Source of the DNA: Thermodesulfobacteriota bacterium
Lineage (GTDB): Bacteria; Desulfobacterota_D; UBA1144; Nemesobacterales; N074bin48
DNA length: 11,231 bases
Reading direction: 5' to 3'
Assembly: GCA_041572575.1 (NCBI GenBank)
Contig: JBFFSH010000083.1
Coordinates: 1 to 11,231, forward strand
A program made the position numbers and the translations under genes. Of this stretch, positions 1 through 11,231 are shown piece after piece; positions within the stretch are counted from its first letter, which is position 1; each line of letters begins with the position of its first letter. A model generated the notes under the pieces. That model saw nothing but the letters and a program-made list of their open reading frames with translations, had not been told where the DNA came from and ran no database searches.

Positions 1-141
1 GTAAGGAGGGTTTTAATATGCCTAGTCATTTAAATGTCCCCACGAAATATTGGGAACTCACAAAGGAGGTTCCACCTCCTCCTATAGAGAGAGACATAAA
101 ATCCTGGATTATTGCTAATCCATCAGATCCACTATGGGATA
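1..141. repeat. Terminal direct repeat, copy 1 (circularisation overlap)
   Basis: Identical to 11091-11231 (GTAAGGAGGG...ACTATGGGATA), 141 bp. Confidence 0.97.
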
Positions 142-995
142 TCGATGTTCTTCCTCTCACATATACAGACAGCCGTTGGTCAGCTTTTGTTGTCAGGGTT
201 GATGAGCCTACAAGAAGGCGTCTAGTACCTGATCCACCTCTCGATCTATGGGATGGAGAAAACGCAGACTTAGTTGAATACTGGTATGTAGACCACAAGA
301 ACACAATGCTTGGTCCATATCTCGAATTTGGTGTAACAGTTTCAACCAGCTATAAAGATCCTAAAGGTAATGTGTGGAGAGCTGGTTATTATCCATATAT
401 GTATCTTACTGGTGATGCACCAGTAGATGCTGGTCGTGTACTCGGATTTCCAAAGAAAATGTCATATATCAGATGCACAGTTCACGGTGGAGAAAAAGGA
501 ACCGACTTTTTTGGCTTTGCAATGTCCCGTAACGGATATTTACTACACAGTGCTACAGGTCAGTTCGACGATAAGCAGGTAACCCCTCCATATTTCTATG
601 GAAAGACCGATTGGGGTAAATTTAACATGAAGGTTATCACAAGACCAGACGTATCTAGCTCCGAATGGCAGCTAACATACCTACCTTCAGAGCTTCCTGG
701 TGCTATGAAGGAAATGATTCAGGGTCACCGTTTTAAAATTAAACCTGAACATACCCGTACAGCTTCTGGCGATGCTATTAACTGGTTTGCTCAGGCAACA
801 CCTTTTGATAACATGGGTGCAGAGATCAAGATTCAGGAAGTTACAGGTCTTATTTCATTTGTATTTGATCTAGTTATTCCTCCAGCAGTTGTTCTTTGGA
901 CAGAGACATATGAGCGTCCAGCCAGCTATAGAGGATATGCAACACCATACAAGTATGGACTACGTCAGCAGTTCCCAATCAGTCAGGGATCATAA
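18..995 (+). CDS. Acetoacetate decarboxylase-like superfamily protein (paralogue 1)
   Basis: 325 aa ORF with RBS AAGGAGG at 3-9. Contains the family motifs GPYLEFG and GRVLGFPKK (Schiff-base Lys), plus an N-terminal extension. Confidence 0.85.
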   Translation: MPSHLNVPTKYWELTKEVPPPPIERDIKSWIIANPSDPLWDIDVLPLTYTDSRWSAFVVRVDEPTRRRLVPDPPLDLWDGENADLVEYWYVDHKNTMLGPYLEFGVTVSTSYKDPKGNVWRAGYYPYMYLTGDAPVDAGRVLGFPKKMSYIRCTVHGGEKGTDFFGFAMSRNGYLLHSATGQFDDKQVTPPYFYGKTDWGKFNMKVITRPDVSSSEWQLTYLPSELPGAMKEMIQGHRFKIKPEHTRTASGDAINWFAQATPFDNMGAEIKIQEVTGLISFVFDLVIPPAVVLWTETYERPASYRGYATPYKYGLRQQFPISQGS

Positions 996-1052
996 TAGTA
1001 GTTTCTTGTATAAACATAAATATCGAAAAAAAAGATTCAGGAGGTTATAACA

Positions 1053-2024
1053 ATGGGTTTACATGCTAATGAATATAGTTATCCATGGTTGGCAGAAGGT
1101 GAAGTTCCACCTCTACCAATGGATAGAGACAGAATACACATCATAAGTCAGGGTGTTATCGACCCAGTATTTGACTATGATATTATTCCATTGACTTATA
1201 CAGAAAGCCGCTGGATGGCATATTGTATCAGAGCTGATATAAATGCTATGAAAGCTATCGTTCCAGAACCAATCGAAGTACAAGACGATGTAATCGAGTT
1301 CTGGTATGTAATTCACAGAAACACAATGCTTGGACCATACATGGAATTTGGTGTAACTTTTTCAGCTACAGTAGATGATGGTTCAGGACATATTTACAAA
1401 GCTGGTTATTATCCATATATGTATCTCTCAAATGACTCACCAATCTTTGCAGGTAAAGAGCCATTTGGATTTCCAAAGAAAGCAGCTTATATCGCTGGTT
1501 TCGAGCATGGAACAAACAATAACTACTTCAACCATCTAATGGAACGTCGTGGTTATATACTACATACAGCGAATGGTCGCTATTCAGACAAACCACTTTC
1601 AGTTAAACCTACATTTTATGGCAAAACTGACTGGGGTAGAATGAACTATCGTATTACCACAAGACCAGATGTATCAAATAGTATCCATGAAGTAACATAT
1701 CTCCCATCTGAGCTGCCTCCAGGATTTGGAACAGGACATAGATTCCAGTTAGATCCTCAGAGTATCCGTACAGCTACAGGCGATGATATTCGTTCTTGGT
1801 ACATGTCAGGTACTCCATTTGACTTCATGGGTGGTCAGATACCTGCAACAGAGATTGTTGGTCTTATCAGTTTTACATTTAACTTGATCATTCCACCAGC
1901 TGCTACAATCTGGACAAGAACTGTAGAAAGAGGCGAAGCAGATTTCGGACAGATTCTATATTCAAAACCATTTGAATATACAATGCGTCATCGTTTCTTA
2001 CTACCACAGTACAGCCAGGCTTAA
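1053..2024 (+). CDS. Acetoacetate decarboxylase-like superfamily protein (paralogue 2)
   Basis: 323 aa ORF with RBS AGGAGG upstream. Motifs GPYMEFG and GKEPFGFPKK. Shares NTMLGPY, AGYYPYMYL, FYGKTDWG, TRPDVS and TYLPSELP with paralogue 1. Confidence 0.85.
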   Translation: MGLHANEYSYPWLAEGEVPPLPMDRDRIHIISQGVIDPVFDYDIIPLTYTESRWMAYCIRADINAMKAIVPEPIEVQDDVIEFWYVIHRNTMLGPYMEFGVTFSATVDDGSGHIYKAGYYPYMYLSNDSPIFAGKEPFGFPKKAAYIAGFEHGTNNNYFNHLMERRGYILHTANGRYSDKPLSVKPTFYGKTDWGRMNYRITTRPDVSNSIHEVTYLPSELPPGFGTGHRFQLDPQSIRTATGDDIRSWYMSGTPFDFMGGQIPATEIVGLISFTFNLIIPPAATIWTRTVERGEADFGQILYSKPFEYTMRHRFLLPQYSQA

Positions 2025-2040
2025 TTAATTGAAAACAACG

Positions 2041-2071
2041 GATAGAAGCACTAATAGTGCTTCTATCTTTT
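2041..2071 (+). terminator. Rho-independent terminator of the adc-like pair
   Basis: GATAGAAGCACT-AAT-AGTGCTTCTATC, a perfect 12-bp stem followed by TTTT, 16 nt after the stop codon. Confidence 0.85.
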
Positions 2072-2115
2072 AATTATTTGTCTGGATAGTAATTAAAACA
2101 GGTAGTTAAAAAATT

Positions 2116-2153
2116 AACCCCATTAGAACTATATAGCTCTAATGGGGTTTTTT
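2116..2153 (+). terminator. Second terminator-like hairpin
   Basis: AACCCCATTAGA-N10-TCTAATGGGGTT followed by a T run and preceded by an A run. Confidence 0.75.
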
Positions 2154-2284
2154 ATTGGTAAATACTAATTTCTATGTGCTAACCTCTTATCAACTCAATA
2201 AACAGCGTTAAAATAGCTTAAAATGAATCATTTGATATAGTTTTATATTATTTCTATCATATCGCGAACACAAGGAGTACATAT

Positions 2285-2497
2285 ATGAAAGTTGTAAGTC
2301 CAGCAGGGGATTTTGAGATAACAATAGAGGATTCTTCAGTAGAACAGGATTCTATTGTGTTAAAAGGGCAAATGGGGGTATGGGATTCCAAGATTTACCT
2401 AAAGCCAAGCGACCTATTTATATTCGCATCGATGTTAATAAGACCTGCTATTATAGTATTTTTATTAAAATATCCGTTTAAACAGATCTTTAAATAA
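2285..2497 (+). CDS. Small hypothetical protein with a hydrophobic C-terminal segment
   Basis: 70 aa ORF with RBS AAGGAG at 2272-2277. Fills the intergenic gap and is followed by a terminator. Confidence 0.7.
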   Translation: MKVVSPAGDFEITIEDSSVEQDSIVLKGQMGVWDSKIYLKPSDLFIFASMLIRPAIIVFLLKYPFKQIFK

Positions 2498-2544
2498 AGG
2501 GGTGTTTTAAGTATAGGTCAAACAATAAATCTTTAATAGGAATA

Positions 2545-2573
2545 AAAAAAGGGGCATATAATGCCCCTTTTTT
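2545..2573. terminator. Bidirectional terminator between convergent genes
   Basis: AAAAAAGGGGCAT-ATA-ATGCCCCTTTTTT. Confidence 0.85.
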
Positions 2574-2617
2574 GGTTAAAACTTATATAAAAATAGTTTG
2601 ATATTATAAACTATATA

Positions 2618-3142
2618 TTATCCTGGTACTCCACCAAGTGGATTCCATTTTTCTGTGAGTAACAACATTCCTGGAATAAGAAGTGTTACTATGGACTCTA
2701 TAAGGAATAAATAAGCAACAAGTGTTGCTGTTCCTTTTCCTAGAGCAAGTGCTGTCCAAGCAAAGAAAACTAAAACAGCCCATGCAACAGAGAAACCAGC
2801 CATATAGTTAAGCCCTAATGAGCTGAAATGTGATGCGTACCATAGAAATACTATAGTAGCGAATAGGCAATACCAGCCTAAACCCTTACCATCGTGGCCG
2901 TGAATGAAAATTCCGGCTACCATAAAATAAATCAGTGCAAATACAGATACTAAAGCGGTAGCGGCTGTTAAACCGAGACCATGTAGCTGCCATGCAGCTA
3001 TTGAAATAATAATACCTACGCCAAGGTTTAATACACCAATCTCCTTAGCACCGGTTTTACCAAGAAGGGTCATCCCGTTTCCAAAGAAAACGAACCCTAC
3101 CAATAATAACACTAAACCAAGTAAAGCCTCTACAGGAACCAT
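2618..3142 (-). CDS. AmiS/UreI family membrane channel (urea or short-chain amide)
   Basis: 174 aa with about six hydrophobic helices. Family-like segments include LGLVLLLVGFVFFGNG, DGKGLGWYCLF, WAVL and TLLIPG. GGAG RBS upstream. Confidence 0.85.
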   Translation of the reverse strand: MVPVEALLGLVLLLVGFVFFGNGMTLLGKTGAKEIGVLNLGVGIIISIAAWQLHGLGLTAATALVSVFALIYFMVAGIFIHGHDGKGLGWYCLFATIVFLWYASHFSSLGLNYMAGFSVAWAVLVFFAWTALALGKGTATLVAYLFLIESIVTLLIPGMLLLTEKWNPLGGVPG

Positions 3143-3229
3143 ATCTCTCCATACCTCCTTTATTTATTTTCTTATGGTTTATAAGAGTTGTATGGTCACA
3201 AAAAGATACACTATAACCATTACTAGTAG

Positions 3230-3259
3230 CTTTTAGCACATTTCATATATAAATGTCAA
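3230..3259 (-). promoter_or_regulatory. Candidate sigma70 promoter of the AmiS/UreI gene
   Basis: Minus strand TTGACA (3259-3254), 18 bp spacer ending in TGC, then TAAAAG (imperfect extended -10). Confidence 0.4.
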
Positions 3260-3328
3260 GATGTTTTTTACTGTATATAGGAATTTGGGGTTGGAAAAAT
3301 TAAACTTAGTTTATATAAACAATGGAAG

Positions 3329-3365
3329 AAGTAACCAAGGAGTTCTAAAAGCTCCTTGGTTACTT
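3329..3365 (-). terminator. Hairpin terminator after the thiolase-DUF35-MaoC operon
   Basis: AAGTAACCAAGGAG (3329-3342) and CTCCTTGGTTACTT (3352-3365) form a perfect 14-bp inverted repeat just past the MaoC stop. Confidence 0.8.
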
Positions 3366-3380
3366 TAAAATATATAGTTT

Positions 3381-3833
3381 TTAAGATGATTCTTTTCTAT
3401 TTACCAAAATTACCCACTTACCTTTCTGTACTACTTCGTCTTTTTGGTTATGTACATTAACTTCAAAGATAAAAAATCCCATATTGGGGCGTTTATGTTC
3501 CCTCTTTTCTACTAATTTGCGCGTTATATGGATAGTATCTCCTGGGAATACGGCACCTGAGAAACGCCAGTCTTCGAGTCCCATAAAGGCCACTGTTGCA
3601 AGCCTTGGCATTGTAAACCAAAGACCAGTTGCAATAGAAGTTACCAGCATTCCATGGGCTACACGAGTTTTAAATACTGTCTTTTTAGCAAACTCTTCAT
3701 CTATGTGCATGTTATTATAATCTGCAGAAAGGCCCGCAAAATTAACAACATCTGCTTCGGTAACTGTTCTGCCGGAGCTTTTATGCTCAGCATCTACTTC
3801 TAAATCTTCATATAGAATACGATCTTGCGCCAT
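3381..3833 (-). CDS. MaoC-like (hot-dog fold) enoyl-CoA hydratase/dehydratase
   Basis: Motif FAGLSADYNNMHIDEEFAK...AHGML, with the catalytic Asp/His retained. Start moved from 3851 to the ATG at 3833 because RBS AAGGAG lies at 3848-3843 (150 aa). Confidence 0.88.
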   Translation of the reverse strand: MAQDRILYEDLEVDAEHKSSGRTVTEADVVNFAGLSADYNNMHIDEEFAKKTVFKTRVAHGMLVTSIATGLWFTMPRLATVAFMGLEDWRFSGAVFPGDTIHITRKLVEKREHKRPNMGFFIFEVNVHNQKDEVVQKGKWVILVNRKESS

Positions 3834-3858
3834 TACAATTATCTCCTTCAAGTATTAG

Positions 3859-4278
3859 TTATGCAGCAGGTTTAAACTTTGGAAGTGTAACTTCATCTGT
3901 TACATCATCAAATACAACCTCTACATCCATTCCCATATGAACATCGTTAGGATCACAATCAACTATATTTGTCATCATTTTTACACCTTCTTCTGTTTCA
4001 ACCAGTGCAACTACATATGGTCCATCACCTTTATAAGCCTTTGTTGGGCCCATATGATGAATTGAAAATGTCCAAACCTTTGCTTTTCCGCTTGCTTTAC
4101 TCCATTCTACCTCTGCCATATCATCTCCTGGAGAAAAAGCCCTGGGGTAGAAAAAGAATTTGTTAGTTTCTTTTGATTTTGGGAGCATTAATTCATGGTT
4201 TTTACATGCATCCCAAAAAGGTTTAGTTTCGGGTCGAAACTCTGGAAGTGGTTTATTGTATTTATTTTCTTCTGACAT
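3859..4278 (-). CDS. DUF35 (Zn-ribbon/OB-fold, acyl-CoA-binding) protein
   Basis: ETKPFWDA...FFYPR...SGKAKVWTFS...PYVVALVETEEG.KMMTNIV...GMDVEVVF. Lies directly downstream of the thiolase-fold gene, with AGGAGG RBS. Confidence 0.9.
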   Translation of the reverse strand: MSEENKYNKPLPEFRPETKPFWDACKNHELMLPKSKETNKFFFYPRAFSPGDDMAEVEWSKASGKAKVWTFSIHHMGPTKAYKGDGPYVVALVETEEGVKMMTNIVDCDPNDVHMGMDVEVVFDDVTDEVTLPKFKPAA

Positions 4279-4299
4279 ATTTAATTTCCTCCTAAATGA

Positions 4300-5511
4300 T
4301 TAAGAAAGCGCTTGGTTTCCAAGCAGTATGGTGCTGTGAGCAGAAACAATTCCTCCGTTTCCATGAACAAGGGCAACTTCGGCATTATCAACCTGTCTTG
4401 GTCCTGCCTCACCTCTAAGTTGTAGTGTAGCTTCTATTACGTGGTGCATCCCTCCTAAATGAGCTTGTGACAGTAGCCCTCCATTTGTATTCACAGGCAT
4501 ATCTTTTCCAATTTCCATGCGGCCTTCTAGTGCGAATGGTCCTGCTTCACCCTTACCAACAAACCCGAGACCTTCCATCTCTAGGGCAACTGTTATGGTA
4601 AAACAGTCATAAAGATATGCCAGGTTTATATCTTTTGGACCTATTCCCGCTGTATCGTATGCTTTCTTCCCAGATCTTTCTACTGCATTGTATATCTGGT
4701 CTAAATCTTGTAGTGTAGTTAGATACTGATGTGAATAGCCCTGTCCCATACCCCATAGGTATGCAAGTGGTTTTTCTATTCCAAGCTGTTTTGCTTTTTC
4801 TTCCGTTGTAACTATAAAAGCAGCACCACCATCGGAAATAATTGAACAATCATATTTGTGTAATGGTTCTGCGATAACCCTGGAGCTAAGAACATCATCT
4901 ATAGTAAGAGGCTCTTTATTCATAGCATTTTCTTTCAAAGCTGCATGCTTACGCATTGTTACTGCAATAGCTGCCAGGTGCTCTGAGGTTGCTCCATACT
5001 CATGCAGATACCTCTGTGCAGCAAGTGCATAACCACCTGGTGTTGTAAGTCCATATGGATACTCAAACTCTGCATGGCACATCTCTCTAATAAGCGCCAC
5101 CATACCGGAGGATGATATTCCTGAGAGTGTATTATCTCCTCTCACACAAAGCACAGCCTCGGCCTGTCCGGTAGCGATAGCCATAGCAGCCTCTGCTGCC
5201 ATCCACACTGCCGTAGAACCACCAATTGCTATAGATGAAAAGAATTTGGGGTTTAGTCCAAAATAATCTGCAAATGTAGTACAGTGCATGAATGTATGTT
5301 CAACAAGTGAAAATGCTGTTACTAGTCCGTCTACATCGGTCTTTTTAATTCCTGCATCTTCTATTGCAAGCTTTGATGCTTCGGAGAGGAAGTGAAATGA
5401 GCTTTTATTAGGGATCTTGCCCTGTTCGGTCTCACCTACTCCTGCAATAACGATTTTATTTTTTTTAAGTATTTCTCTGGCATCTTTAATGCCCGGGATT
5501 GTACTTGCCAT
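4300..5511 (-). CDS. Thiolase-superfamily protein, SCP-x/Ltp2-like (probable acyl-CoA aldolase)
   Basis: 403 aa with IAGVGET, DCSIISDGGAAFIVT, LYDCFT, VNTNGGLLSQAH and QLRGEAGPRQV. The nucleophile position reads IGGST, with no Cys. Confidence 0.88.
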   Translation of the reverse strand: MASTIPGIKDAREILKKNKIVIAGVGETEQGKIPNKSSFHFLSEASKLAIEDAGIKKTDVDGLVTAFSLVEHTFMHCTTFADYFGLNPKFFSSIAIGGSTAVWMAAEAAMAIATGQAEAVLCVRGDNTLSGISSSGMVALIREMCHAEFEYPYGLTTPGGYALAAQRYLHEYGATSEHLAAIAVTMRKHAALKENAMNKEPLTIDDVLSSRVIAEPLHKYDCSIISDGGAAFIVTTEEKAKQLGIEKPLAYLWGMGQGYSHQYLTTLQDLDQIYNAVERSGKKAYDTAGIGPKDINLAYLYDCFTITVALEMEGLGFVGKGEAGPFALEGRMEIGKDMPVNTNGGLLSQAHLGGMHHVIEATLQLRGEAGPRQVDNAEVALVHGNGGIVSAHSTILLGNQALS

Positions 5512-5557
5512 TACTACTACCCCCTTATCATATAGGATTTAATTTTCAAAGGCTCTT

Positions 5558-5585
5558 ATATTAAATTGACCTTTACAAAAGTCAA
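5558..5585 (-). promoter_or_regulatory. Candidate promoter with overlapping palindromic operator
   Basis: Minus strand TTGACT-16 bp-TAATAT. The inverted repeat TTGACCTTT-AC-AAAAGTCAA (5566-5585) covers the -35 element. Confidence 0.45.
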
Positions 5586-5655
5586 CCTTATCAGCTACTT
5601 AAGACACAATTGTATAAATTATACTTTTTGATGCATTCTAAAACAATACGAAGCT

Positions 5656-6798
5656 CTATATACCAAGTTCTCTTGAGATAACTATCCTCTGAACCTCTGA
5701 TGTGCCTTCAGTTAAAGATGCAAGCTTGGCGTCTCTATAATACCTCTCTACAGGGTACTCCACTCCATAACCATAACCCCCTAAAACCTGTACAGCCTCT
5801 GTAGCCACTTCCTGTACCACTTCTGCCGCGTAAAGCTTAGCCATGGATGCTTCTTTTATGCATTTTTTATCATTACTGTAAAGCCATGCAGCCTTATACA
5901 CCATAAGCCTAGCAGACTCTACCTTTACAGCCATATCTGCTAGTTTAAAGCTTATAGCCTGAAACTTGGAAATTGGTCTTCCAAACGCTTCTCTTTCTTT
6001 TGAATACTGCAGAGCATAATCAAGTGCCGCCTGAGCTATTCCCACCGATTTAGCAGCGTGAGTGATTCTTGCTCCAAGGAGAGTTCCCATAGCTCCACCA
6101 AATCCTCCTTGTCCTACCAAAAGATTCTCTTCGGGAACTTCACAGTTTTCAAATATTAGTTCTCCAGTGTCTGCAGCCTTATGGCCCAATTTATGTATTT
6201 TTGCCCCCACTTGGAAACCTGGCGAGTCCTTATCCACTATAAAAAGGCTTATACCCTCTCCTTTTTTTGTTTTATCTGTATATGCTGCCACTATTGCATA
6301 ATCACACATATTTCCATTAGTAATCCAGGTCTTTGTACCATTTAATATGTACTTGTCTCCCTCTTTTACAGCCTGTGTGCGTATACTTCTTGCATCAGAA
6401 CCTGCATTTGGCTCTGTAAGCCCCAAGGATCCTATGATCTTTCCCTCTATGCCTGGAATAAGATATTTTTCTTTTTGTGCATCTGTACCAAATTTATATA
6501 TTGGGAACATTGAAAGCCCAACATGTGCATTAATACACATGGTCATACCGGCATTTACCTTTCCCATTTCTTCAGAGAATATGCAGTCAGTAATCTTATC
6601 CATTCCTACTCCACCATACTCTTCTGGAAACACTATCCCCAAAAACCCCATTTCCCCCAACTTGGGAAATAGTTCTTTTGGAAAATCCTCTTTAGCTTCA
6701 TATTCTTCTATAAGAGGCTCCACCTCATTTGCAGCAAAATCCCTAATAGTATCCCTGAACATCTCTTGTTCTTCTGTAAATTCAAAATTGAGTGACAC
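5656..6798 (-). CDS. Acyl-CoA dehydrogenase
   Basis: 380 aa, GTG start with AGGAGG RBS. Motifs LTEPNAGSD, LNGTKTWITNG, REAFGRPI..FQ, QVLGGYGY and LTEGTSEVQR (catalytic Glu). Confidence 0.96.
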   Translation of the reverse strand: MSLNFEFTEEQEMFRDTIRDFAANEVEPLIEEYEAKEDFPKELFPKLGEMGFLGIVFPEEYGGVGMDKITDCIFSEEMGKVNAGMTMCINAHVGLSMFPIYKFGTDAQKEKYLIPGIEGKIIGSLGLTEPNAGSDARSIRTQAVKEGDKYILNGTKTWITNGNMCDYAIVAAYTDKTKKGEGISLFIVDKDSPGFQVGAKIHKLGHKAADTGELIFENCEVPEENLLVGQGGFGGAMGTLLGARITHAAKSVGIAQAALDYALQYSKEREAFGRPISKFQAISFKLADMAVKVESARLMVYKAAWLYSNDKKCIKEASMAKLYAAEVVQEVATEAVQVLGGYGYGVEYPVERYYRDAKLASLTEGTSEVQRIVISRELGI

Positions 6799-6983: not shown

Positions 6984-7559
6984 ATGGCACAAAATTTACC
7001 GGAAACATTAAACTATCAAGAAAGGGAATTGCTACTTTCTCAGCCAAACCAAAAAGCCCCTACTGGCCTGAGAGATCTTGCCATGATAAGACTTATGATA
7101 AATGCTGGTCTGCGTTCTTGTGAAGTATTAAAAATGTTTATTGAAGATATAGACTGGATAAGTGGAAAACTTCACATAAAACAGGGAAAAGGTAAGAAGG
7201 ATAGAATAATATGGGTTAATGAAGAGGATTTAAACGTAATAAAAAAATGGAAAGAAATAAAGCCTAAAAGTCCTGTTTTGTTTACCACATTAAAAGGAGG
7301 ATGTATAAATGACAGATATTTGAGGGCTATGGTAAAAAGAAGAGCGCAAAATGCTGGAATCACTAAAAACGTGCACCCTCACTTACTGCGCCATACATTT
7401 GCAACCGATCTTTTAAGGTCTACAAAAAATATAAGGCTTGTTCAAAAAGCCCTTGGGCATGCAAACCTGTCATCGACCATGATTTATACCCATGTGTATG
7501 ATGAAGAGCTTGAAAGCGCATTAAAATCATTTAGGAATAGTAATTACCGCGGTAGTTAG
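6984..7559 (+). CDS. Tyrosine recombinase, catalytic domain only (probable plasmid resolvase)
   Basis: 191 aa with the full catalytic set: GLR (R), GKGKK (K), HLLRH (HxxR), LGH (H) and TMIYTH (Y). No N-terminal core-binding domain. Confidence 0.93.
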   Translation: MAQNLPETLNYQERELLLSQPNQKAPTGLRDLAMIRLMINAGLRSCEVLKMFIEDIDWISGKLHIKQGKGKKDRIIWVNEEDLNVIKKWKEIKPKSPVLFTTLKGGCINDRYLRAMVKRRAQNAGITKNVHPHLLRHTFATDLLRSTKNIRLVQKALGHANLSSTMIYTHVYDEELESALKSFRNSNYRGS

Positions 7560-7578
7560 TGCGGTAGCTACCTCGGTA
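7545..7578. repeat. Array of three 10-bp palindromes, 12-bp period (parS-like site 1)
   Basis: TACCGCGGTA (7545), TAGTGCGGTA (7557), TACCTCGGTA (7569). Confidence 0.8.
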
Positions 7579-8191
7579 ATATATGCTTGCTAGCCCAATC
7601 TATTTGTACTCCGTGCTCCAACCTCTCCTTAACCACTTCAGATGATTCTGGTAAAAAGTACTGTCTACCATACACCCCTTGGGAAGGCTTTGTGATAACA
7701 ATACTTTTCTTATGTTCCAATGATTTGATAGCAACCCTTATTGTTTTGTCAGAAAGGCCTGTGAGTTCGCGTATTCTTGTAATACCTATTCTGACCTCCT
7801 GAGAACCGCTTTTTATCAATTCGCTTTTTATAGCATTATAGATTTTATTTTCGGAATTTGTATGTGTAGCACTTAGACTATTTTGCTCTATGGGCTTTGT
7901 GGTTATATTTTTGTTAGTTACCGCGGTATCTACCTTAGTATGTACTGCAGTAGTTACCGCACTATCTACCGCGGTAGGATGTTTGGTAACCCCTTGTATA
8001 TGTTCGCTTAATTGTGGTTTATCTATATTTCGCTCTGACCTAAAAGAGCTGAAATATTTCGTAGCTACCTTATGTGTGGTAAGTGGATCAGACCGTTTGT
8101 TCATGGACTCAATCATCCCATCCAGGCGGCCCTTTTTCTTCTGTTTATTAGAGGCTTCTACTGAGGTATTGTCTTCCTTCTTTTTGCTCAT
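7568..8191 (-). CDS. ParA partner protein with C-terminal winged HTH (candidate centromere-binding protein)
   Basis: 207 aa, overlapping the parA 3' end by 44 nt. Basic N-terminal KKKGRLDGMI, a low-complexity linker, and HTH-like IGITRIRELTGLSDKTIRVAIKSLEHKKSI followed by a wing. Confidence 0.7.
   Translation of the reverse strand: MSKKKEDNTSVEASNKQKKKGRLDGMIESMNKRSDPLTTHKVATKYFSSFRSERNIDKPQLSEHIQGVTKHPTAVDSAVTTAVHTKVDTAVTNKNITTKPIEQNSLSATHTNSENKIYNAIKSELIKSGSQEVRIGITRIRELTGLSDKTIRVAIKSLEHKKSIVITKPSQGVYGRQYFLPESSEVVKERLEHGVQIDWASKHILPR
7919..7976. repeat. Array of five 10-bp palindromes, 12-bp period (parS-like site 2), inside the wHTH gene
   Basis: TACCGCGGTA (7919), TACCTTAGTA (7931), TACTGCAGTA (7943), TACCGCACTA (7955), TACCGCGGTA (7967). 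Confidence 0.85.
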
Positions 8192-8954
8192 CCTGATATA
8201 TCCTTATTATCTCTTTTGCTACTCTTCTGTAGTCCATAGCGCCCGAGCACAGGGGGTCGTACTCTAAAATATGTTTGCCAAAACCACTAGCTTCTTTAAG
8301 CCTTACATTGTTGTGTATGGCAGGGAGCGTCTGTGGCCCGAATTTTTTTTCAATTGCATCGATTACCGTTTTGCTTACATTTGTAAGTTTGTCATGCATA
8401 GTGGGAAGCCCATATGGAACTATCGGATAATCTGTCCTGGATGAATATATTTCATATAGCGTTTCATCTATCATTTTTACAGCATCAAGGGCCATTGGCT
8501 GTGTCTGTATTGTGATTATCACATCGTCCGCTGCAAAAAATGCGTTTATAGTAAGTGTTGCAAGGGAAGGTGGGCAATCGATTATAACAAAATCTGTTTT
8601 ATGTTTAACTTTATTTAATGATTTCTGCAATTTATGATCTTTTTCTATCAAAGAAGACATACTTAGATCTGCTCTGCTCATAGATAGGTTTGCCGGTATA
8701 AAACTTATTCCATCATCCCTTTTAATTATCACATTGTTTATATCAATACTGCCTCTTGTATCCAACAGCACGTCGTTTATGGTAAGCTCAAAATCATTTG
8801 GGTTATATCCCAAGTGCGAAGTAGCGTTTCCCTGGGGATCTAAATCCACAAGGAGCACTCTTTGTTCTTTTTCCGCTAGACACGCTGCCAAGTTCACGGC
8901 TGTCGTTGTCTTCCCTACACCCCCTTTGTGGTTTGCTATGGCTAATATTTTCAT
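8148..8954 (-). CDS. parA: ParA/Soj family partition ATPase
   Basis: Deviant Walker A KGGVGKTT, A' VDLDPQGNAT, Walker B IIDCPP. No N-terminal HTH. AAGGGGG RBS. Confidence 0.95.
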   Translation of the reverse strand: MKILAIANHKGGVGKTTTAVNLAACLAEKEQRVLLVDLDPQGNATSHLGYNPNDFELTINDVLLDTRGSIDINNVIIKRDDGISFIPANLSMSRADLSMSSLIEKDHKLQKSLNKVKHKTDFVIIDCPPSLATLTINAFFAADDVIITIQTQPMALDAVKMIDETLYEIYSSRTDYPIVPYGLPTMHDKLTNVSKTVIDAIEKKFGPQTLPAIHNNVRLKEASGFGKHILEYDPLCSGAMDYRRVAKEIIRIYQDEQKEGRQYLSRSL

Positions 8955-8974
8955 GCTTCCCCCTTCGTTTTTTC

Positions 8975-9889
8975 TTAGCTGCCTTCTGCCTTTAGATAGA
9001 TATTATCTATAACCATATCGCAAAGCATTTCTACAAAAAATTTTCTGGCTTTTTCTGACTCGTTTGGTAATTCGTCGTAAGGAAAATCTGTTTTTACTAG
9101 ATTTGCTATCGAGTCGATATCAATTTCCGGATTTTCCTCCGATAACTCAGTCATTCTGTTTACCATTATTTCTTTAATTGTCTTATAAGCTCCTTCCTCT
9201 ACCACATCCTCTAGCGGTTTTACCCCGTTCAAATTGTCATATATTTCGTATAATCGGGTTTTAAAAATGCCATTTTTTAAATTTGTATGCACCTTTTTTT
9301 CGTTTTTATGCGTTTTTACACTATAGGTTCTTTTATTTATTTGTGTCTTATTTATATATGAGTATTCTTTGGGTGACATTTTTGTCACCCCCCCCCGTGA
9401 TAATTTTGTCACCCCCCCCGTGACATTTTTGTCACCCCCCCCCATGACAATTCTGTCATCCCCCTTAGAATCCAAGTCTTCTGTATCTTTGTCGGTTATT
9501 TCTTCATTATAATCTGCTCTCAGCATCTCTTCTGTGAGTTTCTTTACCAGGGGTCTAAAATCAAAAATTGTTGTTATCTGAGCCCCTGTATGCTCGTTAA
9601 AACGCGGTTCTTTTATAAGCAGATGAAGTTCTTCTAAGTCCTGGGTGATTCTTTTTATGCTTCTTTCTTCAACTCCAGCCCTTTTTGCAAGTGTGGAGTA
9701 GCTTGGAAACGGACTGTATCTATCCCACTTAAAAGACATGATATCTATTATAAGTGTTAAGTGTTTTGGTTTAATTCCGAGGGCAGAACGGTAGCGAAGT
9801 AAGAGGTTTGGGACGCTAGTAAAGCCTTCGTCAAGTATATCGCCCCATATTTGTACTATTCTGGTTTTATCTTGTTTGTTTGTAGGCAA
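8975..9889 (-). CDS. Replication initiator protein with N-terminal HTH (phage/plasmid replisome-organiser type)
   Basis: 304 aa, TTG start with GGAAGG RBS. GFTSVPNLLL...FPSYSTLAKRAGVEERSIKRITQDLEE HTH. Central Gly/Thr/Lys linker is encoded by DNA iterons. First gene of the operon containing parA. Confidence 0.8.
   Translation of the reverse strand: MPTNKQDKTRIVQIWGDILDEGFTSVPNLLLRYRSALGIKPKHLTLIIDIMSFKWDRYSPFPSYSTLAKRAGVEERSIKRITQDLEELHLLIKEPRFNEHTGAQITTIFDFRPLVKKLTEEMLRADYNEEITDKDTEDLDSKGDDRIVMGGGDKNVTGGVTKLSRGGVTKMSPKEYSYINKTQINKRTYSVKTHKNEKKVHTNLKNGIFKTRLYEIYDNLNGVKPLEDVVEEGAYKTIKEIMVNRMTELSEENPEIDIDSIANLVKTDFPYDELPNESEKARKFFVEMLCDMVIDNIYLKAEGS
9270..9370. other. AT-rich tract beside the iterons (candidate DNA unwinding element)
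   Basis: Strand-biased T-rich sequence (TTTTTTAAATTTG...TTTTATTTATTTG...TATTTATATATG) immediately flanking the iterons. Confidence 0.5.
9373..9464. repeat. Four palindromic iterons with C-tract spacers (putative oriV)
   Basis: GTGACATTTTTGTCAC (9373), GTGATAATTTTGTCAC (9397), GTGACATTTTTGTCAC (9420), ATGACAATTCTGTCAT (9444). Periods are 24, 23 and 24 bp. Confidence 0.88.
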
Positions 9890-9927
9890 ATTTACCTTCC
9901 TAAATTTATCTTAAATAAATTAAGGTC

Positions 9928-9957
9928 TTGACATTGCTTTTTATGGGAAGGTATCAT
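9928..9957 (+). promoter_or_regulatory. Sigma70 promoter of the antisense RNA
   Basis: TTGACA (9928-9933), 18 bp spacer, TATCAT (9952-9957). Fires opposite to rep, within the rep leader. Confidence 0.7.
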
Positions 9958-9963
9958 TTAGAT

Positions 9964-10024
9964 GTTCCACCTTCCGGTTGCCGCCGTTGTTTTTGTTTTC
10001 TCCACAAACATCGGCGGCTTTCTT
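9964..10024 (+). ncRNA. Putative ~60-nt counter-transcribed RNA (ctRNA) against the rep leader
   Basis: Bounded by the promoter above and the terminator hairpin GCCGCCG (9980-9986) / CGGCGGC (10012-10018) plus TTTCTT. Ends are approximate. Confidence 0.65.
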
Positions 10025-10030
10025 ATATTT

Positions 10031-10059
10031 ATTATATTATAATTACCGATTTAAATCAA
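10031..10059 (-). promoter_or_regulatory. Promoter of the rep-parA-wHTH operon
   Basis: Minus strand TTGATT (10059-10054), 17 bp spacer, TATAAT (10036-10031). Predicts a leader of about 135 nt. Confidence 0.65.
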
Positions 10060-10118
10060 AGATTGATATATAACACTAGAGCAATTAATAATACAAAAAA
10101 CTTTTCTGAGAACAACCA

Positions 10119-10898
10119 ATGGACAGAAATGAAAAATTGGCAAGAGATTTTTTAGATCTAATACAAAATTGCAAACATGCTGTAGCGCTAACAGGTGCTG
10201 GTATAAGCACGGAGTCCGGAATACCAGATTACCGTTCACCGGATACGGGCCTTTGGGAAAATACCGATATGTCTGTGGTTTCTCTAGATGGTTTTTTAGC
10301 AGACCCTTCAAAATATTACAAATACTCACTTAAGCTTTATCCGGTAAGAAGCGCTGCAAAGCCAAATCCTGCGCATTATCTTCTAGCCTCGTTAGAAAAA
10401 CTCGGATTTTTAAAAGGTGTTATTACGCAGAATGTAGATGGTTTGCATTACAAAGCCGGTTCTGAAACCGTTCATGAACTTCACGGATCTCTTAGGCAGA
10501 CAGTCTGTCTTGGCTGCAACTTGTTGTTTCCCATGGAAGAAATTATGCAAAGGGTAGTTTCTGGGGAAAATCCGCCGTACTGTCAGGAGTGTGGAGCTGT
10601 TTTGAAGCCAAACGCCATATTTTTTGGTGAAGCTCTACCGCAAATACCTTGGAAAGAATCAGTTAAGCTTTGTGAAAACGCTGACTTGTTCATTGTAATA
10701 GGCTCATCACTACAAGTCTCACCCGCAAATATACTACCTGATATGACTATCAAAAAAGGCGCAAAACTTGTTATATGCAATATTCAGGCTACCCCTTTTG
10801 ATACAGATGCAACGCTTATTGTTCGGGAAAAGATAGGTGGGTTTGCTTCCTTAGTGGCGAGCTTGTTGGAAAGTAATATCACTGATACTGAAAGCTAG
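10119..10898 (+). CDS. cobB: NAD-dependent protein deacylase, Sir2/CobB family
   Basis: GAGISTESGIPDYRS, ITQNVDGLH, ELHGS, CxxC...CxxC zinc site, LKPNAIFFGE and GSSLQVSPA. Confidence 0.93.
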   Translation: MDRNEKLARDFLDLIQNCKHAVALTGAGISTESGIPDYRSPDTGLWENTDMSVVSLDGFLADPSKYYKYSLKLYPVRSAAKPNPAHYLLASLEKLGFLKGVITQNVDGLHYKAGSETVHELHGSLRQTVCLGCNLLFPMEEIMQRVVSGENPPYCQECGAVLKPNAIFFGEALPQIPWKESVKLCENADLFIVIGSSLQVSPANILPDMTIKKGAKLVICNIQATPFDTDATLIVREKIGGFASLVASLLESNITDTES

Positions 10899-11090: not shown

Positions 11091-11231
11091 GTAAGGAGGG
11101 TTTTAATATGCCTAGTCATTTAAATGTCCCCACGAAATATTGGGAACTCACAAAGGAGGTTCCACCTCCTCCTATAGAGAGAGACATAAAATCCTGGATT
11201 ATTGCTAATCCATCAGATCCACTATGGGATA
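11091..11231. repeat. Terminal direct repeat, copy 2 (redundant overlap with 1-141)
   Basis: Exact match to 1-141. Contains the RBS and first codons of the 18..995 gene. Confidence 0.97.

Follow-up and report, generated by a model that had tools for sequence, protein, structure and literature searches.

The sequence studied was the stretch from position 1 to position 11,231 of contig JBFFSH010000083.1 (GCA_041572575.1, Thermodesulfobacteriota bacterium), and this whole stretch of 11,231 nt is called the window hereafter. An exact direct repeat of 141 nt was found at its two ends (1–141 and 11091–11231), indicating that the contig closes into a circle of 11,090 bp and is thus a complete small plasmid. 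We analyzed the region upstream of its rep gene, where a putative small RNA gene lies on the strand opposite to the rep leader. rep is followed by a ParA gene and then by an open reading frame (ORF) of 207 aa (orf207), and a Sir2 gene diverges upstream of rep. The features of the control region, including the Shine-Dalgarno (SD) sequence of rep, are as follows.

8975–9889, minus strand: rep, a 304-aa ORF with a TTG start, encoding a DnaD-like winged-helix N-terminal domain, a disordered linker and a helical C-terminal domain.
10031–10059, minus strand: rep promoter with −35 TTGATT (10059–10054), a 17-nt spacer and −10 TATAAT (10036–10031); 10 of 12 consensus matches.
9890–10024, minus strand: rep mRNA leader, with a start placed at about 10024 and hairpin I (10018–9980), the complement of the RNA terminator.
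9928–9957, plus strand: antisense RNA promoter with −35 TTGACA (9928–9933), an 18-nt spacer and −10 TATCAT (9952–9957).
9964–10024, plus strand: predicted antisense small RNA of about 58–61 nt, with a 5′ tail (9964–9979), a hairpin (9980–10018) and a U-rich tract from 10019.
9964–9977, minus strand: element 1, CCGGAAGGTGGAAC, SD-like, including GGAAGGT (9975–9969); the target of the RNA tail, invariant in all loci.
9946–9953, minus strand: element 2, TACCTTCC, whose partner in minimum free energy (MFE) folds is either element 1 (hairpin II) or the rep SD.
9893–9900, minus strand: element 3, GGAAGGTA, the rep SD region.
9899–9925, minus strand: A/U-rich hairpin III (CCU.UAAUUUAU...AUAAAUUU.AGG), partly covering the rep SD in the free leader in MFE and suboptimal folds.

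The original prediction had proposed a translational switch of rep, in which a convergent promoter (TTGACA-18-TATCAT) and a GC-rich terminator define an RNA of about 60 nt complementary to the 5′ part of the leader. The promoter was found on the plus strand with 11 of 12 consensus matches, and the terminator hairpin consists of GCCGCCG (9980–9986) and CGGCGGC (10012–10018) on the same strand, followed by TTTCTTATATTTATT; promoter, hairpin and tail were conserved in more than 100 loci. RNAs of 58–71 nt folded into this terminator hairpin in ViennaRNA with −21.3 kcal/mol, and the 5′ tail is a 16-nt single-stranded segment, GUUCCACCUUCCGGUU. A simple terminator scan gave 0 sites, the hairpin being overlooked because of the loop rule of 3–8 nt. 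Promoter-likeness by itself was not beyond chance (4 sites vs 2.3 ± 1.5 in shuffles), and the promoters are credible because they are kept in relatives. The leader start claimed at about 10024 is consistent with the TTGATT-17-TATAAT at 10059–10031, from which it was deduced.

Upstream of rep homologues, a conserved block consisting of the hairpin base, AACCGGAAGGTGGAAC, and the complements of the −10 box and of TTGACA was far better kept than the protein. A 21-mer comprising the tail and the stem base was found in 57 stretches of one-genome-per-species contigs; the hairpin was present in 55 of them, and the remaining two were chance matches within coding sequence. A metagenome scan with the same 21-mer gave 106 stretches, 80 of which were fetched. 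Among 55 unique contexts, the −35 box was TTGACA in 54, the spacer was 18 nt in 52, and the −10 box varied solely within TAnnAT-like words. The RNA alignment covered 34 of 39 unique sequences (four were dropped for redundancy and one, L049, by oversight); nt 2–23 were invariant, a single hairpin was found in all 34, and the upper stem was variable with two-sided changes at three pairs. The T run after the hairpin was always on one strand only. Covariance model R1 matched window positions 9964–10024 at 74.6 bits. Of 101 genomes of the order, 61 had the RNA by this model, nearly all of them as a single copy, in agreement with a pattern search. In the Rfam search, which had been suggested along with the original prediction, no family, including ctRNA_pGA1, ctRNA_pND324, ctRNA_pT181, ctRNA_p42d, CopA and RNAI, matched 9887–10059 at E ≤ 1, and none of 10 chromosomal loci of the RNA gene gave a hit at the gathering score. 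A literature text search for the 16-nt motif in DNA or RNA letters found it in no paper.

Of 26 unique contexts linked to rep, 23 had an upstream promoter with 10 of 12 matches, mostly TTGATT-17-TATAAT; the 24 chromosomal contexts had none. All 80 unique rep-linked leaders had one layout, consisting of the rep promoter, hairpin I, element 1, the complement of the RNA promoter, a variable spacer and rep. Because the rep promoter is placed upstream of the RNA gene, the rep message is expected always to begin by running through the RNA gene, and this predicted read-through is the defining arrangement of countertranscript control. Encoded opposite the 5′ part of the rep mRNA, the antisense RNA has a promoter and an intrinsic terminator of its own; hairpin and T tract are on the plus strand only. 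The base of hairpin I was invariant in 21 of 21 leaders, and element 1 occurs once in the genome. These results suggest that the RNA at 9964 to about 10024 is very probably a real gene and, with high probability, an uncatalogued plasmid countertranscript without a described family.

The motifs named in the original prediction, GGAAGGT (9975–9969), TACCTTCC (9953–9946), GGAAGGTA (9900–9893) and the TTG start (9889–9887), were all located on the minus strand at these positions. GGAAGGT occurred five times on the two strands of the window, compared with 1.2 expected, a count reached in 1 of 200 shuffles, and three of the five copies were within 82 nt (9894–9975). The 8-bp complementarity between TACCTTCC and GGAAGGTA was reached in none of 300 shuffles of the middle segment. 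The heptamer of element 3 was found at the SD position of only about 14 ORFs of at least 100 aa in the genome, and element 2 overlaps the spacer and the −10 box of the antisense promoter. In the six nearest relatives, the TTG start and TACCTTCC were present in all six and GGAAGGTA was present at the SD position in four.

What is said here on mechanism draws on the sequence, its conservation and folding at equilibrium (37 °C). The free leader folded into hairpin I, hairpin II (GGAAGGUG with UACCUUCC) and two local A/U-rich hairpins over the rep SD. In the cofold, the leader and the RNA formed a perfect 58-bp duplex (ΔΔG −66.4 kcal/mol), and the rest of the leader refolded into UACCUUCC:GGAAGGUA, a result with which the fold of the masked leader agreed. 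The middle element had been claimed to pair with either flanking element, and the folds bear this out, with hairpin II in the free leader and the rep SD pairing in the cofold. Among 21 leaders, the pairing of element 1 with the middle element beat shuffles in eight and that of the middle element with the SD in two. For a broader comparison, the 80 leaders were clustered by a simple 80% similarity rule into 18 leader types. Masking the RNA target raised the opening energy of the ribosome-binding site (RBS) by 1.47 kcal/mol on average in the 18 types, compared with 0.50 kcal/mol in shuffled controls, and in six of the 18 types no more than 10% of shuffles reached the observed effect.

The RNA tail holds ACCUUCC, the same as the middle element, and direct pairing of the tail with the rep SD is therefore possible, a complementarity that the original prediction had missed. 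In the window, the tail was predicted to pair with the rep RBS at −11.8 kcal/mol (p = 0.003; a 7-nt match). Tail:RBS pairing beat shuffled RBS regions in seven of the 18 leader types. Some types have an SD region that nearly copies element 1 (12–15 bp, −21.8 and −27.7 kcal/mol), and the L150 leader had a 15-bp tail:RBS duplex of −27.7 kcal/mol. Direct RBS occlusion by the tail appears at least as well supported by comparison as the release of the anti-SD element. As a side observation, near copies of element 1 at the rep SD (e.g., AACCGGGAGGTGGAG) were seen in L150, L093, L155 and L108, where the tail duplexes of about 12 to 17 bp and −20 to −28 kcal/mol were contiguous in L093 and L150 and interrupted in L108 and L155.

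From the anatomy, conservation and predicted folds shown above, we infer transcription of the RNA, repression of rep and its effective route as follows. A countertranscript of about 60 nt from TTGACA-18-TATCAT would converge on the rep promoter of the 11,090-bp circular plasmid, pair with roughly the first 60 nt of the rep mRNA and lower Rep synthesis post-transcriptionally, the RNA thereby serving as the copy-number sensor of the plasmid. The likeliest effector step would be occlusion of the rep RBS by pyrimidine-rich ACCUUCC elements. The duplex would remove the SD-like decoy CCGGAAGGUGGAAC from hairpin II, so that UACCUUCC would be freed to pair with the rep SD GGAAGGUA, and ACCUUCC in the tail of further RNA molecules would pair directly with the rep SD. 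That the RNA represses rep is probable. A countertranscript acting by RBS occlusion is, with somewhat better than even confidence, the best explanation overall; taken alone, RBS occlusion has nearly an even chance of being the route of repression, and anti-SD release as the main route is possible and rather doubtful.

Several results weigh against this explanation. The opening energy of rep positions −14 to +5 was 8.97 kcal/mol in the free leader and 9.38 kcal/mol in the masked leader. This change was within the null of shuffled middle segments (+0.34 ± 1.05 kcal/mol; 33% of shuffles reach it), and equilibrium modelling therefore predicts no switch in the window plasmid, where the rep RBS is already closed by the local A/U-rich hairpins. 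Pairing of the middle element with the SD was significant in only four of the 18 leader types, the largest three types (49 of the 80 leaders) had neither this signal nor that of tail:RBS pairing, and GGAAGGTA was lost from the SD position in two of the six nearest relatives. Hairpin II was compatible with 85% of cells in the 21 leaders and had no two-sided covariation; it cannot covary because its 5′ arm, element 1, is invariant. Tail:SD pairing is not specific: against the RBSs of all 12 plasmid genes the tail gave energies between −3 and −12 kcal/mol, and many of their SD regions paired about equally well (−9 to −12 kcal/mol). The leader clusters and loci are related, and the counts overstate their independence. 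Six public runs labelled as RNA contained the stretch, and the four examined were contigs, which give no ends, strand or level; the contigs of one run stopped at 9991 and resumed at 10005, in the hairpin loop, and were not counted as evidence, DNA carry-over being possible.

Some parts of the original prediction thus stood and others did not. RNAfold and cofold gave the predicted OFF fold, and the RBS accessibility changed little (8.97 to 9.38 kcal/mol); two-sided changes were found in the terminator stem and none in hairpin II. For the three-element switch as a whole, the motifs, their non-randomness and the OFF fold were upheld, and the RBS energetics in the window and a family-wide anti-SD:SD pairing were not. 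The switch is a plausible and fair reading of the window motifs, not borne out by the modelled energetics and not general in the family.

Repression could also proceed with no dedicated RBS switch, through RNase III cleavage, decay following the loss of the protective 5′ hairpin, or interference between the two promoters about 60 bp apart, the GGAAGGT-type elements being side effects of an SD-like tail. The perfect 58-bp duplex predicted here would suit RNase III or decay, the convergent promoters overlap at all rep-linked loci, the RBS accessibility in the window is unchanged, and the largest leader types lack a consistent RBS effect; in addition, any partner of an SD-like element is automatically anti-SD-like. 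We nevertheless regard this alternative as unlikely, because the triple motif in the window exceeds chance and near copies of element 1 turn up at the SD of several distinct leader types (7 of 18). RNase III cleavage is also usually dispensable in the countertranscript systems that have been studied.

The original prediction had also missed a short ORF in the leader.

9892–9957, minus strand: leader ORF of 21 codons (MIPSHKKQCQDLNLFKINLGR), with AUG at 9957–9955, 9 nt past GGUGG, and UAA at 9894–9892.

Its AUG is the complement of the antisense −10 box TATCAT, and its stop is 2 nt ahead of the rep TTG. This geometry would suit control like that of plasmids R1 and IncB, in which the RNA would cover the SD of the leader ORF (GGAAGGUGG), translation of this ORF would be needed to melt the closed rep RBS, and rep would be translated by reinitiation at its weak TTG; the excerpted text of PMC5717011 describes such a precedent in R1, where CopA blocks tap and repA is coupled to tap. 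Modelled ribosome traffic over the leader ORF lowered the opening energy of the rep RBS from 8.97 to 4.92 kcal/mol in the window, with a mean change of −0.87 kcal/mol in 18 leaders. The leader AUG was present in 64 of 80 leaders, as leader-peptide control would have it, and the AUG-creating TATCAT was found in 23 of 26 rep-linked contexts vs 1 of 24 chromosomal ones, an association that, however, tracks clades. The SD and codons 2–4 of the leader ORF are locked in hairpin II (opening energy, 10.18 kcal/mol), and three of the six nearest relatives have ATA, not ATG, at its start. The stop was within 5 nt of the rep start in just nine of the 64 leaders and was usually 38–51 nt upstream, and the conserved letters of the peptide are already fixed by the −10 and −35 boxes of the opposite strand. 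On balance, control through the leader ORF is improbable.

The RNA gene was also found on chromosomes without rep, a form that the original prediction had missed. No Rep match was present in the fetched locus for 35 of the 57 species-level 21-mer matches; 28 of these 35 loci adjoin an ADC-like and/or an acyl-CoA dehydrogenase gene (the dehydrogenase in 26), and many are on chromosomes of 1.5–2.4 Mb. The proteins flanking the chromosomal RNA gene were 93% and 80% identical to those of the plasmid. The chromosomal form prevails in one genus (30 of 36 genomes), which had a Rep match in 0 of 8, and the rep-linked form was found in other families. In 26 aligned sequences of this genus, the RNA and its −35 and −10 boxes were invariant or nearly so and both flanks were variable, suggesting that the chromosomal RNA gene is under apparent purifying selection without rep. 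Since the RNA gene is kept without rep, control of rep is not its sole constraint, which is a further point against reading it as a rep regulator alone. The tail is invariant although the Rep proteins are only about 52% identical. With RNA and target encoded by one DNA segment, the need to stay complementary does not by itself account for this invariance. Some sequence-specific constraint on the RNA itself is suggested.

The RNA was linked to a conserved cargo cluster of thiolase, MaoC and ADC-like genes, with the acyl-CoA dehydrogenase gene as well in the window and the chromosomal loci; this cluster is carried on a mini-replicon of 11–23 kb in some families and on the chromosome in others. 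We tentatively consider, as somewhat unlikely, that a single-copy, order-wide RNA with an anti-SD-like 22-nt 5′ end has a second job in trans at GGAAGGUGG-like RBSs of cargo or host genes, the rep RBS being wired into the same regulator. If this were true, the copy number of the plasmid would be coupled to a cellular signal. In a stronger form of this idea, which is more improbable still, the RNA would act chiefly in trans on host or cargo genes, its overlap with the rep leader would be secondary and the tail would be kept for other targets. This form would explain why the RNA lies between ADC-like and acyl-CoA dehydrogenase genes in 24 unique chromosomal contexts of one genus, with no rep and no sense promoter, why the RNA and its promoter are near-invariant in the 26 sequences while the flanks vary, and why the tail is invariant beyond the demands of complementarity. 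However, a search for trans targets in the own genome gave complementarity of at least 10 nt at 32 loci, compared with 33 for the reversed control and 10–63 for shuffles, that is, at chance level; pairing of the tail with SD regions is generic; and in another family the cargo genes were found in six of six genomes and the RNA in none of the six. A trans-acting regulator would, moreover, be compatible with control of rep.

As separate observations, 11 nt of element 1 (ACCGGAAGGTG, window 9966–9976) are identical to the loop region of helix 45 at the 3′ end of 16S rRNA (G000 contig C100, about position 5961, minus strand), and the RNA tail could pair at the helix 45 region; such 11-nt matches were at chance level (seven found, controls similar).

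The remaining possibility, that there is no RNA and the conserved block is a DNA site for protein binding or recombination or a terminator shielding rep and Sir2, is scarcely credible: the block is invariant at the DNA level and common to the plasmid and chromosomal forms, and the plasmid has an integrase gene, but the perfect −35 box, the fixed 18-nt spacing, the variable but valid −10 box and the fixed 7–8 nt to the block are what a promoter needs and not a binding site, and the hairpin pairing is kept through two-sided changes with the T run on one strand only.

The Rep protein was analyzed by domain, sequence and fold searches. Its Pfam matches were HTH_36 and DnaD_N only, with no match to RepA_N, and PDB sequence and fold searches gave DnaD. 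pSK41 RepA was rejected as a fold match, since no chain of it was among the top 50, which contained DnaD and MarR-type winged helices instead. The TTG start of rep aligns with the ATG of homologues. Rep homologues were found in 12 of 41 genomes of relatives, and a Rep-only search of genome contigs gave no confirmed related loci. A repeat array lies inside the gene.

9373–9464, inside rep: four copies of a repeat of about 23 bp, GTGACAnnTTTGTCAC with a C run.

The repeats encode the conserved GDKNVT/GGVTK repeats of the linker, and AlphaFold leaves residues 127–195 disordered. By analogy, the four repeats are likely the origin or Rep-binding sites. The original prediction had called the combination of antisense control with an iteron origin unusual, and this did not hold, as the origin of pSK41 is likewise inside rep according to the excerpted text of PMC5703833.

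The plasmid carries a metabolic operon of acyl-CoA dehydrogenase, thiolase, OB-fold, MaoC and AmiS genes, together with two ADC-like genes, Sir2 and a short integrase gene. A relative's plasmid was a circle of 22,817 bp (9,061 of 9,061 overlapping bases identical) with the same cargo at 62–88% aa identity and a Rep only 52% identical to that of the window. The cargo (two ADC-like, thiolase, OB-fold, MaoC and AmiS genes) was compared in the window (18–6798) and at loci L021 and L091/L092. It was 62–93% identical between this plasmid, the 22.8-kb plasmid, which is from another family, and the chromosomal form in a third family, a range that also covers Sir2 in both plasmids and acyl-CoA dehydrogenase in the window and the chromosomal loci only. 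ADC1 was 84–94% identical in 63 of 101 genomes of the order. From these comparisons, the cargo looks like a core gene cluster carried on a mini-replicon in some lineages. In genomes G052–G076, most complete chromosomes of the genus that has the RNA gene without rep hold two equally scoring ADC1 copies, one beside the RNA gene. The two copies mostly share one orientation and are usually 100–155 kb apart, a distance that reaches about 650 kb in a few.

Other sequences of the plasmid were also inspected. Separating the partition genes from the metabolic operon is the tyrosine-recombinase gene (6984–7559), which is on the opposite strand and encodes 191 aa with the catalytic domain alone. Repeats of the TAGTTACCGCGGTA type, both direct and inverted, cluster at 7540–7579 and 7915–7990, where they flank orf207 downstream of parA and are candidate partition (centromere) sites; orf207 had no match in Pfam or NCBIfam. 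An GGGGCAUnAUAUGCCCC hairpin with U tracts on both sides lies within 2504–2660, between AmiS and the second ADC gene. Sub-threshold Rfam hits to SraG, sraA and STnc40 in this interval were rejected, as all fell on this one hairpin, which is a two-way terminator.

A blastn search of PLSDB plasmids with 8900–10130 gave no match. Sampled words of 8975–10120 were found in 20 runs from 10 studies, with every word present (share 1.00) in 16 of them, and the runs were labelled as marine sediment, sediment, soil, marine and seawater metagenomes. The plasmid is either unusually widespread or clonal. Related loci came from metagenome-assembled genomes of Candidatus Dadabacteria and Thermodesulfobacteriota, and none of the papers listed in a literature search on Dadabacteria and plasmids had, by title and abstract opening, such a plasmid as its subject.

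Antisense control of plasmid replication is textbook knowledge, and nearly all studied cases are from Proteobacteria and Firmicutes. With its promoter pair, 60-nt RNA and iterons in rep, the module described here offers a defined system in which replication control of small circular replicons from an uncultured lineage can be tested. The metabolic genes on these replicons are highly conserved, and in some families the replicons themselves seem close to fixation. The module is also a possible starting point for genetic tools in the Dadabacteria/Thermodesulfobacteriota lineage. In the standard picture, countertranscripts drift freely with their targets. An invariant tail across half-identical initiators and an RNA gene surviving without rep are unexpected in this light; an explanation of these two features would indicate how a copy-control RNA becomes tied to, or recruited for, another function.

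The replicon was compared with known systems as these are described in the excerpted texts of PMC5717011 and PMC5703833. In R1 CopA/tap/repA, as well as IncB and IncI-alpha, the target is upstream of a short ORF whose stop abuts the rep start, and the rep RBS is closed, an arrangement to which the window is similar (PMC5717011). Unlike in R1, the leader ORF here is missing from three of the six nearest relatives, and in most others it is not coupled to rep; its SD is buried, and neither CopB nor a two-hairpin CopA, both found in R1, is present. pT181 RNAI and pIP501 RNAIII share with the window the pre-emptor logic, in which a 5′ element holds the middle element (PMC5703833). Attenuation of the pT181/pIP501 type was rejected, since the folds contained no hairpin followed by a U run and the rep strand had no terminator-like site in 9600–10400; unlike in those plasmids, the induced pairing here encloses 45 nt and has AAAUUUG after it in place of a U run, and the sole U5 run in relatives comes after a 4–5 bp stem.

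pSK41 RNAI and pMV158 RNAII are known countertranscripts with translational control (PMC5703833). RNAII of pMV158, at 48 nt, has a 5′ tail and one terminator hairpin, the same anatomy as the RNA here; its pairing begins at the tail and inhibits translation of the initiator (PMC5703833). RNAII pairs directly upstream of the repB RBS in a rolling-circle plasmid with the CopG repressor. In the window, unlike in pMV158, the fully complementary target (10024–9964) is at least 75 nt upstream of TTG, the match at the SD is 7 nt, and no Cop-like gene was seen on the plasmid. The initiator of pSK41 belongs to the RepA_N family and Rep here does not, the host of pSK41 is a Firmicute and the host here is of the Dadabacteria type, and the likeness is one of design. 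pSK41 RNAI measures about 83 nt; the loops of its two stem-loops are important and its tail is dispensable, compared with one hairpin and an invariant tail here. The RBS effect of the pSK41 type was absent in the model of the window plasmid and present in six of the 18 leader types. The RNAI target of pSK41 is about 100 nt from the start codon, compared with 75–135 nt upstream of TTG here, and the structure proposed to form on binding is a stem-loop that sequesters the RBS and not a terminator, as is proposed here (PMC5703833). Both Rep proteins are DnaD-like, with an N-terminal DNA-binding domain, a linker encoded by repeats inside rep (the origin repeats in pSK41, where the linker is dispensable) and a C-terminal domain (PMC5703833). 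pSK41, named as an analogue in the original prediction, was found to be a good match for the whole replicon design.

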